DNA of 64,000 nt. Origin: Escherichia coli. GTDB taxonomy: Bacteria > Pseudomonadota > Gammaproteobacteria > Enterobacterales > Enterobacteriaceae. The notes below the pieces were generated by a model that was given only the letters and a program-made list of their open reading frames with translations, was not told the origin of the DNA and made no database searches. The stretch lies in the NCBI RefSeq assembly GCF_024223415.1, contig NZ_CP100501.1. One strand, given 5' to 3'. Position 1 is the first letter of the stretch, and every line of letters begins with the position of its first letter. Both the position numbers and the translations under genes were made by a program. Below are positions 21,237-28,516 of this stretch, piece by piece.

Positions 21237-22335
21237 TGTGATTATCCTCGGTATCTGTGGCTTTCAGGAACAGGCTGACGGTAGTGGCGTCTTTCAGGAT
21301 GCCGGACGGCAGGTGCCAGCCGGTATCGGATAACACCCATGGGGTACCGCCAAAACCGAACTGGCGGAAAGCCTGGTTATTGACATCGATGGCAGCACGA
21401 GCAGCGGTCAGACACTTTTCATCCGGTGCAGCCGGTGCATCGCCGGTGGGTGCCATACCACCGTCTGCGGAATACAGCTGATGCCATCCGGTCGCCCGTT
21501 TTTGTGCGTCCGGTTCACACAGCAGTGGCGCAGTCCGGTTTGTGCTGGCCTCTCCGCCGATTACGGAGACCGGATAAATCACCACGCTGAATTCCCGGGC
21601 CAGTTGCTTAAGCGCGGGCTCCAGAAGACGGCAGTTGATGCATGCGGGGTCAAGGAAGGCGTAGAGTGTGCGTTCATGACCAGTGGAGAGATTAATGGTG
21701 AACATACCCCGGTCCGCGTTGCGTTTAAGTACAGTGGCCAGATTACGGCGGGCTTCAGCGACCAGAGTATTTTTGTCTGCTGTTATCGCCGGGGTAGCGG
21801 ATGTCTCCTGCATTTCCTGTGATGCCGGGTGAACGATTTCATTTTTCGTCTCTGACGGGGCTACTGACCGGACAATTTCCTTGTCGATGTGTAATGGTGC
21901 TGTTTCTGTTACGGATTCTGTGACAGGTACCCTGAGAGGGGAATCGCTGTCCGGTTTCAGTAAAATATATCCGGCTGTTACCGCTGTCAGAAGTGCCAGC
22001 ACTAATCCTGCACCGTATATCAGCCCTCTCATGAAGCTGGTTTTCCGGGCAGGAAGTTCTGCATATGCCGCGCTCAGACAGCTGTCAATCGCGGAGAGCA
22101 TTCTGCCGATGTGATGTCCGGGACGTTCAGTATCAACGGTATCAACAAGCAGTGTTTCGGTTATTTCACGAAAAGGGGTGCTGAAGGACAGGTGCATCAG
22201 CCTGTTATTACGGTTAATCAGTGCGCCCAGTTCTGTAACCGGCAGGATGGCAATAACCTCCTGACCACCGTCAGGGTACAGGGCGGTCAGGGACAGGTGT
22301 TTATTGTTCAGTGTTGCAGTGTAGCGGATGGTCAT
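21217..22335 (-). CDS. trbB: TrbB, thioredoxin-fold disulfide isomerase-like transfer protein
   Basis: 372 aa; CINC (CxxC) motif; TM segment; synteny. Confidence 0.75.
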   Translation of the reverse strand: MTIRYTATLNNKHLSLTALYPDGGQEVIAILPVTELGALINRNNRLMHLSFSTPFREITETLLVDTVDTERPGHHIGRMLSAIDSCLSAAYAELPARKTSFMRGLIYGAGLVLALLTAVTAGYILLKPDSDSPLRVPVTESVTETAPLHIDKEIVRSVAPSETKNEIVHPASQEMQETSATPAITADKNTLVAEARRNLATVLKRNADRGMFTINLSTGHERTLYAFLDPACINCRLLEPALKQLAREFSVVIYPVSVIGGEASTNRTAPLLCEPDAQKRATGWHQLYSADGGMAPTGDAPAAPDEKCLTAARAAIDVNNQAFRQFGFGGTPWVLSDTGWHLPSGILKDATTVSLFLKATDTEDNHNEPASR

Positions 22336-23666
22336 TGTGCTTTTTCCTTGTCGGCGGGATGCTGTTTTTCGGTGGTTTCGGTGGTTTCGGTGGTTTCGGT
22401 GGTTTCGGTGGTTTCGGTGGTTTCGGTGGTTTCGGTGGTTTCGGTGGTTTCACCAGTGTCAGTGTCTTCGTCGTTATCATGGCGGCGGGGTATCACGTCA
22501 TCCGTGAGTGACCAGCGGGTCCTGATCTGACGTTTACGATCGCGATCTGGCTGAGGTTCGTCCCATATCAGGCCCAGCCCCAGCATGTCCCGTCGAAGCC
22601 CTTCAATGGCCTCTTCCACACAGGGTTCCGGGCAGGGGAGGCCGAGACGGCTGGCTTCATTTTCTGCCCGGGCAACGGCCACCACGCCGGCCCCTTCGAT
22701 GAAGCCTTTTGTGGTGTTTGCCCGGTGAAGGGCATAGAAGAGCGTCCGGTCAACGCCCTTGAGCCACAGCCAGTTCGGAGGCGTCAGGCGCAAATCATGT
22801 GCGTAAAGCCAGACCAGACCGCTGCGAACGTAACGGTGCTGCCTGAGCCACTTTTGTGCGCCTTCTGTTTTGATGACCCGGATAAAGGCGTTTCTGGCCA
22901 GTGAATACACCGGCGTGCTGAAACGCCCCTGGTCCCGTTTACTTTTGAGCCTGCAGGAGAGATTGAGGTTGTTCATCAGGGCTACCGCTGCTTTCCGGTC
23001 ACCGAGGAAGAACTGCAGGCCAAAGATGGCAAAGAGCGCTTTTTCATGTGGGGCCATGTCTTTCCAGCTGGTCAGTGGTTGCCCCAGTTGCGCCATGAAG
23101 CACTGGCGTGTGGACGCAACATCGAGCTGCATGTTGCGGATAAGGTTGTTCTGCTCCACAAAGGCTTCGGGGGTTAGTGCGACACGGCGCTCGGGACGTT
23201 TTTGTCCGTGGAAGAGTCTGTTGTTGTCTCCGTCAGCCAGAACGGGGGCGATCGCCGGTGACAGAGCTGAAAAAATATGGGGCAGTGTGTGGATATTCAG
23301 TGGCCTGCGGGTAAAACGGGGCTGGGCCGGATGGTGAAACCACATCCACAGAAAGCCGAATGTCATGGGAAGCAGAATCAGCCAGAGGATCCCCACTGTC
23401 CGGGACATAACATCCAGCCACTGGCTGAAAGTGATGGTTGCCGCGTTGTTAGCAGTGATGGCCAGCAGGTTGTAACGGGGGACGGCAAAGTTGTGAAAGG
23501 GCCCCCAGTCAATCATGCCCCACAGTGTGTGCAGGATCAGGCAGGAGGCGAAGACGATTTCAGGTAAAAAGCGCCAGATGATAATCGCAAAGAGCAGGCA
23601 TATGGCACCGACGATATACCATATAGCCATTGGATCTTCGGCGGCAGACGTCTGTTGGTAAGACAC
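22332..23666 (-). CDS. trbA: TrbA (DotM-like inner-membrane transfer protein)
   Basis: 444 aa; N-terminal TM helices; synteny; C-terminal (ETT)9 repeat. Confidence 0.75.
   Translation of the reverse strand: MSYQQTSAAEDPMAIWYIVGAICLLFAIIIWRFLPEIVFASCLILHTLWGMIDWGPFHNFAVPRYNLLAITANNAATITFSQWLDVMSRTVGILWLILLPMTFGFLWMWFHHPAQPRFTRRPLNIHTLPHIFSALSPAIAPVLADGDNNRLFHGQKRPERRVALTPEAFVEQNNLIRNMQLDVASTRQCFMAQLGQPLTSWKDMAPHEKALFAIFGLQFFLGDRKAAVALMNNLNLSCRLKSKRDQGRFSTPVYSLARNAFIRVIKTEGAQKWLRQHRYVRSGLVWLYAHDLRLTPPNWLWLKGVDRTLFYALHRANTTKGFIEGAGVVAVARAENEASRLGLPCPEPCVEEAIEGLRRDMLGLGLIWDEPQPDRDRKRQIRTRWSLTDDVIPRRHDNDEDTDTGETTETTETTETTETTETTETTETTETTEKQHPADKEKAQ
22371..22451 (-). repeat. 9 x 9-bp perfect tandem repeat (ggtggtttc) inside trbA, encoding (ETT)9
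   Basis: Direct reading of sequence; in-frame in trbA C-terminus. Confidence 0.9.
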
Positions 23667-23976
23667 GGGGATTCCTCCATAGATGAATGGATAAATTTCG
23701 GGATTAAGTCGGGTGGCATGAATGCGAATCAGCGCCGGTAATAACCGGACAGGAATGAATTCAACAGGACATTTTTACAGAGAAGAGCGAACGGCAGAAG
23801 GTGGTGGGAGACAGGTACAAAAAAACCGACTGGTGAGGCCGGTTTTTTTGCGATTCCGGGGTGGAGTTGGTGGCTCTGACCGGAGGAAGTCTCTTTTCAG
23901 CTAACAATGAGAGAGCTGTTGTGACAGGCAATGTAAGAGTAAGCAGCAGTGATTTCCTCCATTGACGGAGAAACGG

Positions 23977-24448: not shown

Positions 24449-24916
24449 TTATTTCTTATTCTGTTTTCTCCAGGTCCATGGTGGTACCGGATTTTTATCT
24501 GCCCATAATCCCCGCTTCAGGGCGCGGGCATCACGCTGGAGCGGCGGGAGAGTATAGTCATTATTGTAGTCCGGGTACACCCAGGCAGCGCCGTTACGGA
24601 CCTGCCAGCGATTTGCTTCTGTGCCGTCAGCGGTATAGACCCGGCCGAGAATACGGCCATACCTGTCTGTCTGCGCGTATTGCACGGTTACGGGCTTTCC
24701 GGCCACCAGGTCCTTCAGCTGAGTGGCTGACCAGCGTCCAAAGGGCTGTTTCTTTTCCGGTGCATCAATATTAGCCAGACGGACCCTGACAGGCTTTTTG
24801 TCCTGTAATATTTCCAGCGTATCACCATCAAGAACGCGGATGACGTGCCCCTGAATCTGTGCGGCACAGAGAGAAGCGGAAAAAATAATGGTGAGTGAAA
24901 AGATATATTTTATCAT
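24449..24916 (-). CDS. nuc: secreted thermonuclease-family (SNase-like) nuclease
   Basis: 155 aa; signal peptide; GDTLEI...RVRLANIDAPE motif of staphylococcal nuclease homologues. Confidence 0.8.
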   Translation of the reverse strand: MIKYIFSLTIIFSASLCAAQIQGHVIRVLDGDTLEILQDKKPVRVRLANIDAPEKKQPFGRWSATQLKDLVAGKPVTVQYAQTDRYGRILGRVYTADGTEANRWQVRNGAAWVYPDYNNDYTLPPLQRDARALKRGLWADKNPVPPWTWRKQNKK

Positions 24917-25018: not shown

Positions 25019-25699
25019 ATGAATTCCAGTACGCTGATATCCGTGATGATACGGCAACAGATATCCGGTGACGGTATGCAGGAACATATTGATTATCAGA
25101 TTGAGAAATATCAGTTCAGGGCCAGGAATGAGTCACCGCGACTGATGCGCCAGTGGGAAGATGTCATGCGTGAATGCCGTGATACCGGAGCAGGAGCCAG
25201 GGAGCGGCTGCGGATTGCCTTACTTAATGTTGATTATGTGACCAGTTTTGAACTGCCGTTTCGTCTGCTGTTAACCCGGACACCGCAGATGATTGACAGC
25301 GTGCGGCGGGAATGGCAGCTCAGCCAGAAAAAAGTCGTATTCAATGAGCGGCAGCGGGGATGTGTATACAGTCTGCAGAATGACTTATCCGGCGTGCCGG
25401 ATAGCTTCAGTTACAGTCTTGCGACGCGAATACGGCGGGTGGACAGCTATGGCATGACGACGCGTTGTTTCACTGATATAGCCGGGCAGGTTAAAGCCCC
25501 GACAGCACGGCTGAAACTGGCGCTGGAAAGCGGGTTAATTGTCACCGCGCTGGATGGTCTGTTCTGGCTTGGTATTCAGCGTATTGCCGCAGATGTGCAG
25601 CGGCTGCGTCAGTCCGGAATGACAATCATCACCCGGGATGTTGAGGTCTCAGACTCGCTGACCGGAACCACACGGGTTGTTTCCGGGTACAGACTTTGA
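25019..25699 (+). CDS. hypothetical protein (226 aa), possible DNA-binding regulator
   Basis: ORF divergent from nuc; no recognised catalytic motif. Confidence 0.45.
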   Translation: MNSSTLISVMIRQQISGDGMQEHIDYQIEKYQFRARNESPRLMRQWEDVMRECRDTGAGARERLRIALLNVDYVTSFELPFRLLLTRTPQMIDSVRREWQLSQKKVVFNERQRGCVYSLQNDLSGVPDSFSYSLATRIRRVDSYGMTTRCFTDIAGQVKAPTARLKLALESGLIVTALDGLFWLGIQRIAADVQRLRQSGMTIITRDVEVSDSLTGTTRVVSGYRL

Positions 25700-25900
25700 T
25701 TTATGCAACAAAGTATCGCAGCGTCGAATATGAGCTATGGCCAGATTTTTGTTAATCGTGGTTGTTGCAACATGTAAGGCGAATGACCACACTATTCTGG
25801 TACGCTCGTAATCACGCTGAAATTCTGCTTCCTGTCCTGCCGTGATGAGTTCCGACCAGGACATACGGCGAAGTGTATGTCTGTCAGTAATATCCGTCAT
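25649..25900 (-). CDS. hypothetical protein (83 aa)
   Basis: ATGA overlap with upstream gene; 3' end overlaps convergent 226-aa gene. Confidence 0.35.
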   Translation of the reverse strand: MTDITDRHTLRRMSWSELITAGQEAEFQRDYERTRIVWSFALHVATTTINKNLAIAHIRRCDTLLHKSKSVPGNNPCGSGQRV

Positions 25901-26112
25901 GAGCTCTCAGCCTCCTCCTTCGTATTTCCGTCAGAAACACAAACGCCCCGCAGAGAAAATTCGCCAACATTCTCCTTTTTAATGGCGCGCAATGCATCGC
26001 GGCAGGCCCGTTCGGTATGAAAGGCCTGGCTGTGCACCGCCAGTGTGGGCTGACGGGCATCACCGGAAGAGACATTAAAGGGCGATGAAAGCCAGAAAAT
26101 CAGTAGCCACAT
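25897..26112 (-). CDS. hypothetical small protein with N-terminal hydrophobic/signal-like segment (71 aa)
   Basis: MWLLIFWLSSPFNVSS...; part of cluster. Confidence 0.35.
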   Translation of the reverse strand: MWLLIFWLSSPFNVSSGDARQPTLAVHSQAFHTERACRDALRAIKKENVGEFSLRGVCVSDGNTKEEAESS

Positions 26113-26115
26113 GCG

Positions 26116-26499
26116 TCACACCTCGTCCTTTTTATGCGGGTATCTGGACAGAATATTGAGCGCCTGTAATGGCGCTTCATGCATTTCACGGATACAACGG
26201 GCATCGGTGATATTTTCCCGGTAATGTGTGGTTTCCAGCATCATATGATGCATATGGAGCATCCGGGCCAGGGCTGCGCGGAGTTCTTCAATATGTTGTT
26301 CATGGGAATGCTGGCGGGGCTGTATCCGGCAGAGAGGGATAACCTCCACATCATCCGGGTGCGCGCGAAGCCACGCGTCAGTGACTGCAATGTCGTCAGT
26401 GTAAAACCATGTGCCGGATGTCCCGTTGGCCAGAAAACGCATTTTCCAGGCTTCTGGGGTGGCGGTTGTGTTGTTATCTTTCATGGTGCCACCACTCAT
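26116..26499 (-). CDS. hypothetical protein (127 aa)
   Basis: Translationally coupled in cluster; His-rich segment MLHMHHMMLETTHY. Confidence 0.4.
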   Translation of the reverse strand: MSGGTMKDNNTTATPEAWKMRFLANGTSGTWFYTDDIAVTDAWLRAHPDDVEVIPLCRIQPRQHSHEQHIEELRAALARMLHMHHMMLETTHYRENITDARCIREMHEAPLQALNILSRYPHKKDEV

Positions 26500-26687
26500 T
26501 CAACAGGCTTAATGCTGTCCAGGCGCAGTCTGCTCAGACTGTCGTGGCTGCCACAGCGGCGTCCAGTGCTTTTGCTGTAGCACTCCTGCCCCCTGATACA
26601 CCATGCCGTTGGCGTTTCGTAGAGGCTGACACGTCGGGTTTTATCTTTAATGATGAGAAGCCCGGTGTGAGTTTTTGTCTTTTTCAT
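26496..26687 (-). CDS. hypothetical small basic protein (63 aa), first gene of a 4-gene overlapping cluster
   Basis: ATGA stop/start overlap with next gene. Confidence 0.35.
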   Translation of the reverse strand: MKKTKTHTGLLIIKDKTRRVSLYETPTAWCIRGQECYSKSTGRRCGSHDSLSRLRLDSIKPVE

Positions 26688-26941
26688 CGGTGGGGTACAA
26701 ACGCAGAAATTTTGTTGTCATTACATCATCAGTTTTAGCCTGCAGAGACGCTGAAAAATCAGCGTTTTCAGACCCTGTTCAGGTTAGTGAATATTCTTGC
26801 CTGGCCTTTCGGCAATATCAATCCCCTGATGTGTGCACACGTAGTCACTTTCCGGCTTTATTTCTGTCCCTGACACAAAATACGTGGTGGCATGAAAAGG
26901 ATTGTGGCGGACAGGAAAACGATTAGAATAGCGGCGGGCGC

Positions 26942-27235
26942 TTGAGGCTGTATGCCGAAAGCGTTTTGTGGACGGCATGTAGCAGAAAGCCCCAGGCGAT
27001 TTTTTTATCAATCAACCCAGGGCCCACTGTAATGCCTAGACAACATTATAGTAGCCCGATGACGGCCGAAAGGCAATGGAGGGGCTGCGATGCCACAACG
27101 AACGTTTTTAATGATGTTAATCGTCGTCTGTGTGACGATACTGTGTTTTGTCTGGATGGTGAGGGATTCGCTTTGCGGATTTCGTATCGAGCAGGGAAAT
27201 ACGGTGCTTGTGGCAACGTTAGCCTACGAAGTTAA
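26942..27235 (+). CDS. pndC: PndC-like overlapping reading frame (mok analogue) of the pnd locus
   Basis: ORF overlapping pndA in another frame, as in hok/mok architecture. Confidence 0.4.
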   Translation: MRLYAESVLWTACSRKPQAIFLSINPGPTVMPRQHYSSPMTAERQWRGCDATTNVFNDVNRRLCDDTVFCLDGEGFALRISYRAGKYGACGNVSLRS

Positions 27236-27242
27236 ACGTTAA
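27090..27242 (+). CDS. pndA: PndA, Hok/Gef-family type I toxin (50 aa)
   Basis: MPQRTFLMMLIVVCVTILCFVWMVRDSLCGFRIEQGNTVLVATLAYEVKR; hydrophobic TM plus conserved Hok-family C-terminus; below ORF-track cutoff. Confidence 0.8.
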   Translation: MPQRTFLMMLIVVCVTILCFVWMVRDSLCGFRIEQGNTVLVATLAYEVKR

Positions 27243-27868: not shown

Positions 27869-28516
27869 TCAAAATACTTCTGCAACAGGAACACCGGCAA
27901 CTTTTTCCCACTCTTTAACCCGATACCGGATCATCTGTGGGAAACGTTCCTTGTACTCATATCCACGTGCAGCCATGGTGTGCATGGTGTTGGCCAGCGT
28001 CCTTGCTGAGATGCCGGAGATCTCAAGAGGAATCATCGGCAGACTCACATAGGTGGTGTGGATTTCCAGCTTGCCGTCCTCAGCAACCGTGCGGGTAAAG
28101 TTGTGAATATCCAGACCAATCACATCCATCACATTGTTTGGATAAATACGCACATACAGCATGGTGCCGTTTTTAATGTCGATCCCGAAATAACAACTCT
28201 TCGAGAATGACAGTTGCTCATAATCGCTGGTCGGCGCAAAGGGACTGCTTTCTTTTATCTGCTGAACAACCTGCTGGACTTTCTTTTTCTTCGCCCTGGT
28301 TCTTAGATATAGCCAGAGTAATGGGAGGATAATCAGCGTTGAACATCCATATGTTATCATATAGATATTAGGGGAGGAGTATCTGGCGTAGCTAATACTT
28401 AATGTACCTAATATTGCATATATTAATAGGAATGGTATTCCAATAATAAAATAAGCATTGCGGATCAGGTAATAATATGCCCACCAGGAAGGATATCTGT
28501 TTTTTGTTGTACTCAT
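27869..28516 (-). CDS. excA: ExcA-like entry-exclusion inner-membrane protein
   Basis: 215 aa AT-rich gene immediately downstream of traY; two N-terminal TM helices; position as in IncI1. Confidence 0.6.
   Translation of the reverse strand: MSTTKNRYPSWWAYYYLIRNAYFIIGIPFLLIYAILGTLSISYARYSSPNIYMITYGCSTLIILPLLWLYLRTRAKKKKVQQVVQQIKESSPFAPTSDYEQLSFSKSCYFGIDIKNGTMLYVRIYPNNVMDVIGLDIHNFTRTVAEDGKLEIHTTYVSLPMIPLEISGISARTLANTMHTMAARGYEYKERFPQMIRYRVKEWEKVAGVPVAEVF

Follow-up and report, generated by a model that had tools for sequence, protein, structure and literature searches.

An ANR-like gene, phage-type small genes and an ECs1377-family winged-helix gene form an accessory block in the trbA-excA gap of an Escherichia coli I-complex plasmid

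An ANR-like gene at the end of an operon of small genes

The ANR proteins (AraC negative regulators), which include Aar of enteroaggregative Escherichia coli (EAEC) 042, Cnr of enterotoxigenic E. coli (ETEC) and Rnr of Citrobacter rodentium, are small helical proteins (<10 kDa, 39-80 amino acids, aa) with a highly conserved C-terminal cysteine, Cys60 in Aar (PMC4038620). Aar/ANR proteins bind AggR/Rns and H-NS (PMC4983702; PMC5570504). The family shares a core of about 55-65 aa marked by a Trp, an Ala and the C-terminal Cys, and its genes are carried by mobile elements in pathogenic E. coli, in some cases within DNA of phage origin and near AraC-family genes. A second kind of described system, the 'ea' and nin accessory regions of lambdoid and P22-like phages, consists of strings of small, often overlapping genes. 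Here we describe a block of five genes that bears a likeness to both, at positions 25,019-26,687 of a 64,000-nucleotide stretch of E. coli DNA (contig NZ_CP100501.1 of RefSeq assembly GCF_024223415.1; this whole stretch is hereafter the window), which belongs to an I-complex plasmid. In this block a gene for an ANR-like protein, likewise on a mobile element, closes an operon of small genes with homologues in ea and nin regions and converges on a gene for an ECs1377-family protein with a winged helix. Its members are of known kinds (winged-helix, ANR-like and phage accessory small proteins), their arrangement is undescribed, and we found no published role for the block genes in the literature. 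We read the block as portable accessory cargo whose products may bind DNA or regulators of the host and thereby modulate transcription, and give the functional part of this reading a probability of about 0.4. Its features are the following:

25019-25699, plus strand: ECs1377-family protein with a C-terminal winged helix; 226-aa longest open reading frame, conserved start at 25076
25649-25900, minus strand: ANR-like protein of 83 aa, last gene of the operon; NF033650 match, conserved core at about residues 10-62
25897-26112, minus strand: 71-aa gene; phrog_3766 match, E 2.5e-11
26116-26499, minus strand: 127-aa open reading frame, likely 122 aa with start at 26484; N-terminal beta-beta-alpha-beta and C-terminal helical domain
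26496-26687, minus strand: 63-aa gene, first of the surviving operon; phrog_1226 and phrog_7520 matches, E ~1e-16
26793-26821, minus strand: candidate sigma-70 promoter TTGATA-17-AAGAAT upstream of the 63-aa gene, a consensus match only
26827-26829: junction (26827/26828) of a 266-bp deletion with GA microhomology, placed by a three-way alignment with the IncI1 plasmid pMB9108_2 and the VR50 chromosome

An earlier note on this DNA had listed the 226-aa gene and four minus-strand open reading frames (ORFs) of 63, 127, 71 and 83 aa, and all five were located exactly where it had put them. By the Nei-Gojobori method, comparison with copies diverged by 30-40% (synonymous divergence, dS, 1.2-3.1) gave ratios of nonsynonymous to synonymous change (dN/dS) of 0.10 for the 63-aa gene, 0.13 for the 127-aa, 0.09 for the 71-aa and 0.21 for the 83-aa gene when set against the chromosomal copy of strain EH53 (locus L006), and 0.10 for the 226-aa gene when set against the copy in an O157 island (locus L005); across comparisons the 63-aa gene stayed at 0.10-0.12. 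Given these values of 0.09-0.21 relative to diverged copies, all five ORFs are genuine genes under long-term purifying selection.

Two of the starts probably lie inside the longest frames. Homologues of the 226-aa ORF in other genera are 207-213 aa long, their alignment begins at M20 and the PGAP annotation uses the same start; the true gene is likely 25076-25699, encoding 207 aa. Homologues of the 127-aa ORF begin at M6, which is preceded by a GGTGG Shine-Dalgarno sequence, and the true gene is likely 26116-26484, encoding 122 aa. Given this conserved start at M6, the junction between the 63-aa and 122-aa genes is probably a gap of 11 nt rather than an ATGA overlap. At the next junction the genes do not overlap: 3 nt separate them (TGAcgcATG), with a GAGGTG site ahead. 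The junction between the 71-aa and 83-aa genes is a true ATGA overlap (25897-25900) behind the strong Shine-Dalgarno sequence GGAGGAGG. The linkage of all four small genes by ATGA or 3-bp overlaps, as first described, accordingly holds with certainty for the last junction, fails for the middle one and probably fails for the first. The translation signals suggest that the 83-aa gene may be the best translated of the operon. As had been noticed, this last gene also overlaps the 3' end of the convergent winged-helix gene, by 51 nt (25649-25699). The overlapping tail of its product, after about residue 66, is not conserved, as the EH53 copy ends at 69 aa and the copy on the chromosome of VR50 has a different end, reaching 90 aa. 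PGAP left the gene uncalled on the inspected I-complex plasmids and called the 90-aa equivalent on the VR50 chromosome.

The gene content of the operon was once larger. In most IncI1 copies and on the VR50 chromosome the operon is headed by a gene for an 80-aa protein (WP_001363144; L001 8385-8627; L004 13321-13563), which the 266-bp deletion removed from the window along with its upstream region. In R64 an 83-aa gene adjoining pnd encodes a distant homologue of this protein (33% identity, E 1e-8). The stretch with the candidate promoter is identical in the IncI1 and VR50 copies. As reconstructed from these alignments, the ancestral unit is an ECs1377-family gene convergent with an operon encoding 80-, 63-, 122-, 71- and 83-aa proteins, from which the window has lost the first. 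Distant homologues of the individual block genes occur singly, which implies that the block is an assembly and not an indivisible unit.

The probable relationship of the 83-aa protein to ANR was recovered with the NCBIfam model of that family, NF033650. The window protein scores 16.2 bits (E 0.007); for six relatives, with 48-95% identity to it, the scores are higher, at 21.7-30.7 bits (E 1.3e-4 to 2.1e-7). The matches cover positions 3-53 of the 54 in the model. The curated cut-off is 32 bits, and a bona fide ANR of IncF plasmids scores 39.3 bits. The homology to ANR is drawn from the significant matches of these relatives. Moreover, the invariant Cys, Trp and Ala columns of the 83-aa family align with the IncF ANRs, Cys61 corresponding to Cys62 of the latter. 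At 83 aa the protein is slightly longer than the published ANR range of 39-80 aa; its core ends at about residues 62-66 and its relatives are 69-74 aa long. Between the 83-aa protein and an IncF ANR direct BLASTP produced no alignment, and Pfam had no match for the former. Unlike ANR proteins proper, the family has scores below the cut-off (16-31 versus 32 bits) and a non-conserved C-terminal tail, and its gene closes an operon of four to five genes, whereas ANR genes stand alone. We treat the 83-aa protein as a probable divergent relative of ANR, not as a certified member.

Database names at these loci are of other kinds. Homologues of the 83-aa protein are labelled 'neurotensin receptor R8' in NCBI and UniRef records (L004 12174-12446; P0196, P0202, P0204, P0223), and the gene list of an island in one paper uses the same name for a homologue (PMC7371111). 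In some plasmid records a feature called 'flagellar biosynthesis protein FlgM' lies under matches to a second allele of the block, type B (described below). Both names look spurious.

The winged-helix gene and the phage-type small genes

The earlier note had seen no recognisable domain in the block, which is contradicted by the 83-aa protein and also by the 226-aa ORF. The product of the latter matches the NCBIfam model of the ECs1377 family (NF052300) with 300.6 bits, the cut-off being 190, residues 36-224 aligning with profile positions 2-190 of 190. Within it, residues 165-225 match the Pfam domain HTH_39 (PF14090; 22.4 bits, i-Evalue 1.1e-4), and a precomputed PF14090 match is present in many homologues of the 207-aa protein; the 226-aa protein also matches phrog_24243. 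The 207-aa protein is a full-length member of a family that is found on chromosomes, islands and plasmids of the Enterobacterales, with 686 homologues in Citrobacter, Kosakonia, Rahnella, Enterobacter, Serratia and E. coli. The genomic context of the family as a whole is not kept between members, and a Citrobacter member adjoins a chaperone-usher fimbrial operon. The AlphaFold2 (AF2) model of the winged-helix part has helices followed by a beta-hairpin, at low confidence. We found no published functional study of the family; the only paper found with its name mentions it once. A 214-aa gene that occupies the equivalent convergent place in the EH53 locus was compared as a candidate counterpart and is unrelated to the 226-aa protein.

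Three of the small genes have their relatives in phages. Homologues of the 63-aa protein with 40-51% identity were found by tblastn in 100 phage records, mostly of Shiga toxin 2a (Stx2a) phages, where they lie among small early-left genes near an exonuclease, integrase or phosphoadenosine phosphosulfate (PAPS) reductase gene; in phage Flotzy the homologue has small genes around it and is located upstream of exonuclease and integrase. The 71-aa protein has a homologue of 41% identity in Klebsiella phage 2b LV-2017, where the ORF lies unannotated in the nin/ea region. Its own N-terminus is hydrophobic, and C37 and C58 are conserved; the combination of a hydrophobic N-terminus and two conserved cysteines suggests that it may be exported.

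The 127-aa ORF joins parts of differing spread. Its N-terminal domain is largely confined to E. coli, and all close homologues of the 127-aa protein with a named source come from that species. The C-terminal ~50 aa form a domain that an exhaustive search of 1.84 billion representatives also recovered in at least 19 other small proteins (P0174-P0192; loci include L015 90-314 and L019 5001-5447), with the consensus L..AL.RM..MH.LMM.K.NHGASFYDA.C.REMNEAP.QA. One copy of this widely scattered domain is encoded among the small genes of a prophage-like early operon that has an integrase at its end; another copy and the start of an RtcB RNA-ligase gene overlap. Pfam gave no match for the domain in the 21 proteins with it that were searched, nor did a profile search of the PDB, and the AF2 model of the 122-aa protein has a pLDDT of 68. 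Pfam likewise gave no match for the 63-, 71- and 127-aa proteins.

Judged by these homologies, the 63-aa protein, the 71-aa protein and the C-terminal part of the 122-aa protein are of families that temperate phages carry in accessory regions, early or nin, that are non-essential. The overlapping small genes of the block have their likeness in the gene strings of the lambdoid and P22-like ea and nin regions, where homologues of all three are found; unlike those genes, the block is not in a phage here, and its DNA had no DNA-level match in 50,697 phage records. We know of no established function for the phage homologues in these regions. Islands of O157 strain F8797 (L005) and of EH53 (L006), which carry ECs1377 or the type-B block, also have a PAPS-reductase gene, and the latter in addition IbrB-like and PerC genes; a shared ancestry of these PAPS-reductase islands and the 63-aa loci of Stx2 phages is possible. 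Two candidate links of the 63-aa protein were set aside: it is unrelated to the DUF4222 protein adjoining ECs1377 in O157, and a proposed zinc site was dropped, a single Cys being conserved in the phage homologue.

Setting in the plasmid and distribution

Among the matches listed, the records nearest to the window are a GF60 plasmid (100%) and the IncK2/Z plasmid pCh101 (99.9%). The block lies in the gap between trbA and excA, in which an AgrB/dqlB type I toxin system, a 58-aa gene, a thermonuclease gene, the five-gene block and sok/pnd follow one another from the trbA side. The surrounding features are the following:

22332-23666: trbA, an ORF of 444 aa in the window
23817-23904, minus strand: AgrB antisense RNA, Rfam match of 51.8 bits
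23962-24060, plus strand: dqlB, ORF of a DinQ-like type I toxin adjoining the AgrB RNA
24449-24916, minus strand: thermonuclease-family gene of 155 aa, so named by PGAP in L001 and pCh101 (L002), with PHROG endonuclease matches
26936-27092: sok RNA (Rfam); the sok/pnd system spans 26936-27242
27869-28516: excA, the far border of the gap

The gene-order comparison proposed in the earlier note, with R64 and ColIb-P9, was made and extended to pESBL by means of its gene table (PMC4288162). In all three plasmids the trbA-excA interval is without the thermonuclease, the winged-helix gene and the four small genes, which are therefore not part of a conserved IncI backbone. The interval from trbA to traY has been called 'a very variable region' (PMC8004404), and as shown below a minority of the plasmids that share the flanks carry the block. 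On these grounds the five-gene block is accessory cargo and not part of the IncI transfer backbone. The suggestion of an accessory insertion stands in its first half; as for the second, the region is a mosaic rather than one clean insertion, since pnd lies on the trbA side in R64, as it does in ColIb-P9 and pESBL, which is the side opposite to that in the window, and since the block is common to chromosomal islands. In GC content the block is not distinct (0.50-0.54, versus 0.41-0.59 for the flanks).

The neighbour that had been called nuc is indeed a nuclease gene, of the staphylococcal thermonuclease type and not the phospholipase-D-type nuc of the R64 transfer region. Its product has a signal-like N-terminal sequence. 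The gene is divergent from the winged-helix gene and travels with it on plasmids, the two being still adjacent in pSCU-106-1. The AgrB/dqlB pair makes a second type I toxin system sharing the gap with sok/pnd. Many IncI1 relatives have, between pnd and excA, a gene for a 528-aa 'TnsA endonuclease N-terminal domain' protein (L001 9247-10833) with sigma-factor-like PHROG matches, which the window is without. At the other border, trbA contains on the minus strand at 22367-22451 a perfect tandem repeat of 9.4 units of 9 nt (TTTCGGTGG), which close to the C-terminus of TrbA gives rise to a (TET/ETT)n run; TrbA has 444 aa in the window, 438 in pCh101 and 402 in R64, and this difference in length between plasmids suggests that the repeat tract may be length-variable. 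The 'yggA' of pESBL, a candidate that was set aside, is a different gene that adjoins oriT (PMC4288162).

In PLSDB, some part of the 2.9-kb neighbourhood of the block is shared by 1915 plasmid records, 353 of which carry at least 80% of it. A 1.3-kb query that takes in the small genes plus the 3' end of the 226-aa gene is at least 80% covered in 359 plasmid records and matched at 99% identity or more in 348. E. coli chromosomes share the segment from the middle of the winged-helix gene to the 80-aa gene at 93-94% identity; the best match falls into the 90-95% band in 708 genome records, one chromosomal copy of which, that of VR50, was inspected. In this extraintestinal pathogenic strain (ExPEC) the block lies beside iha in a sat-iutA-pap island, flanked by insertion sequence (IS) remnants. 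The type-B allele, with about 48-84% protein identity, is situated directly downstream of genes for serine protease autotransporters of the Enterobacteriaceae (SPATE) on the EH53 chromosome and on pO111_3, and follows espP-type genes on ~97 plasmids; the gene order is retained between the two alleles. On the EH53 chromosome (L006) a truncated AraC-family gene of the YdeO/GadX-like kind lies upstream of the SPATE gene, ~5 kb from the type-B copy. Further copies of the block occur on non-conjugative plasmids, away from tra genes.

A described assemblage of comparable composition exists on IncF plasmids, where the order finO - ANR - thermonuclease - hha - DUF2726 - hok is found just past the tra operon (L023 2307-5824; L007 1346-3147), continuing in the fuller form hok/srnB - repA2. 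This cluster has the same gene types at the edge of a transfer region, namely an ANR-type gene, a thermonuclease and a Hok/Gef toxin, and the thermonuclease of the window is 60% identical to the IncF one that adjoins ANR and hha. The Hha-type modulator of the cluster has its I-complex counterpart in the equivalent gap of pESBL, which carries an Hha/YmoA gene between trbA and excA (PMC4288162). In contrast to the block, the IncF cluster has another gene order, its ANR, at 18% identity with the 83-aa protein, is of a subfamily of its own (the IncF type occurs in at least 5000 PLSDB records), and it is without an ECs1377-family gene and without the phage-type small genes. The same gene types gather at transfer-region edges in two unrelated conjugation systems, which lends circumstantial support to a regulatory reading of the 83-aa gene.

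Possible functions

If the block acts on transcription, the operon would be read leftwards, starting at the candidate promoter that precedes the 63-aa gene, with translation of the 122-, 71- and 83-aa genes coupled. The ANR-like product would bind activators of the AraC/XylS type or H-NS by protein-protein contact, as Aar does, the 207-aa protein would bind DNA through its winged helix, and the other small proteins would bind host proteins, which is what early accessory proteins of phages generally do. Overall, the block would tune the expression of horizontally acquired genes rather than affect transfer, exclusion or plasmid stability. We infer each of these functional steps from sequence. 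Several results weigh against the scheme. The 83-aa protein of the window has only the score of 16.2 bits (E 0.007) given above, and every relative stays under the 32-bit cut-off. Profile-profile comparison (hhalign), made with shallow profiles, aligns the 83-aa protein with the IncF ANRs in the same register but weakly (E 0.025-0.046). The region between the nuclease and winged-helix genes and that upstream of the operon share no operator-like repeats, with only short chance matches between them. The structure models of the 207-aa and 122-aa proteins are of low confidence, and fold searches gave no informative fold; of the profile and structure searches that the earlier note had proposed, the profiles thus yielded results (NF052300, HTH_39 and, below its cut-off, NF033650), and structure prediction with fold searches gave nothing. 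Finally, the unit is decaying in several lineages, through the deletion in the window, a frameshift in pCh101, fusions of the 127-aa and 83-aa genes and truncations by IS elements.

This last point leads to the alternative that survives best, a possible though rather unlikely one, namely that the block is a functionless hitch-hiker, a decaying fragment of a prophage or island that recombined into a variable gap and spreads with the plasmids. The loss of the first operon gene in the window is as such an origin would have it, as is the state of pCh101, the closest relative among the matches listed, in which the 71-aa gene is frameshifted and unannotated (L002 7499-7710). Fusion and truncation variants are common (in P0012 and P0034 deletion of the 71-aa gene has fused the 127-aa and 83-aa genes), IS remnants flank chromosomal copies, R64, ColIb-P9 and pESBL manage without the block, and the identity of 99% or more in 348 plasmid records fits a recent clonal spread. 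On the other hand, dN/dS of ~0.1-0.2 over a dS of 1.2-3 amounts to purifying selection on all five genes, synteny persists between alleles with protein identities of 48-84%, and the distal genes have intact, strong translation signals.

We find it doubtful that the block is instead a module of phage conflict, acting in superinfection exclusion, anti-phage defence or anti-defence for the incoming element. Such a role would agree with the membership of three of its proteins in accessory families of temperate-phage early and nin regions and with its neighbours, two type I toxin systems and a nuclease of the secreted type. IncI1 plasmids do alter the phage type of Salmonella, yet the paper in question credits other regions with this effect (PMC8004404). 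None of the five proteins has a match in PADLOC (E <= 0.1), where the only model matched, the SNc candidate model, was matched by the neighbouring nuclease, and Pfam revealed no enzymatic or sensor domain in them. Furthermore, the block adjoins trbABC/nikB and not the leading region, in which the annotation of R64 places ardA and the SOS inhibition genes; with the polarity that we take IncI1 transfer to have, it is on the late-entering side of oriT.

A stability module of small coupled proteins, of the addiction or toxin-antitoxin type, is very unlikely: small coupled genes are indeed flanked here by genuine type I toxin systems, AgrB/dqlB on one side and sok/pnd on the other, but no toxin-antitoxin family was matched in NCBIfam, Pfam or PADLOC, four to five genes would be atypical, copies with single genes deleted or frameshifted persist, and chromosomal copies are common. 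The least probable of all is an auxiliary function in conjugation or entry exclusion, which the place of the block inside the transfer region between trbA and excA might suggest and which its absence from the transfer-proficient R64, ColIb-P9 and pESBL and its presence on chromosomes and on non-conjugative plasmids away from tra genes oppose.

The reading of the block as transcription-modulating cargo can be taken further. The genes for the 63-, 122-, 71- and 83-aa proteins, together with the 80-aa gene where it is intact, might constitute a self-contained phage-derived operon for host reprogramming, in which an ANR-type anti-activator and three partners would act on genes controlled by H-NS or AraC-type proteins. 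We think this improbable, slightly more so than a role in phage conflict. Were it true, the carriage of a conjugative plasmid could retune virulence-gene expression in ExPEC and in E. coli that produce Shiga toxin (STEC), given that the block recurs beside iha and espP-type autotransporter genes and on I-complex plasmids.

Whatever its role, the comparison corrects some noise in the databases, as the 83-aa gene is missed on the inspected plasmids and mislabelled elsewhere. In other respects the block is ordinary cargo of a variable region and no new sort of system. If the 83-aa protein is ANR-like, ~360 I-complex resistance plasmids, a sizeable minority of those in PLSDB, would carry an unrecognised small regulator, which would also be present in chromosomal islands of E. 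coli (~700 genome records at 90-95% identity, one of them inspected) and would be of the same class as Aar, a dampener of AraC-type virulence activators and an interactor of H-NS. Taken with the IncF cluster, it would suggest that modulators of the nucleoid and of activators are repeatedly placed at transfer-region edges, which would bear on plasmid cost and on the cross-talk between plasmids and virulence genes.

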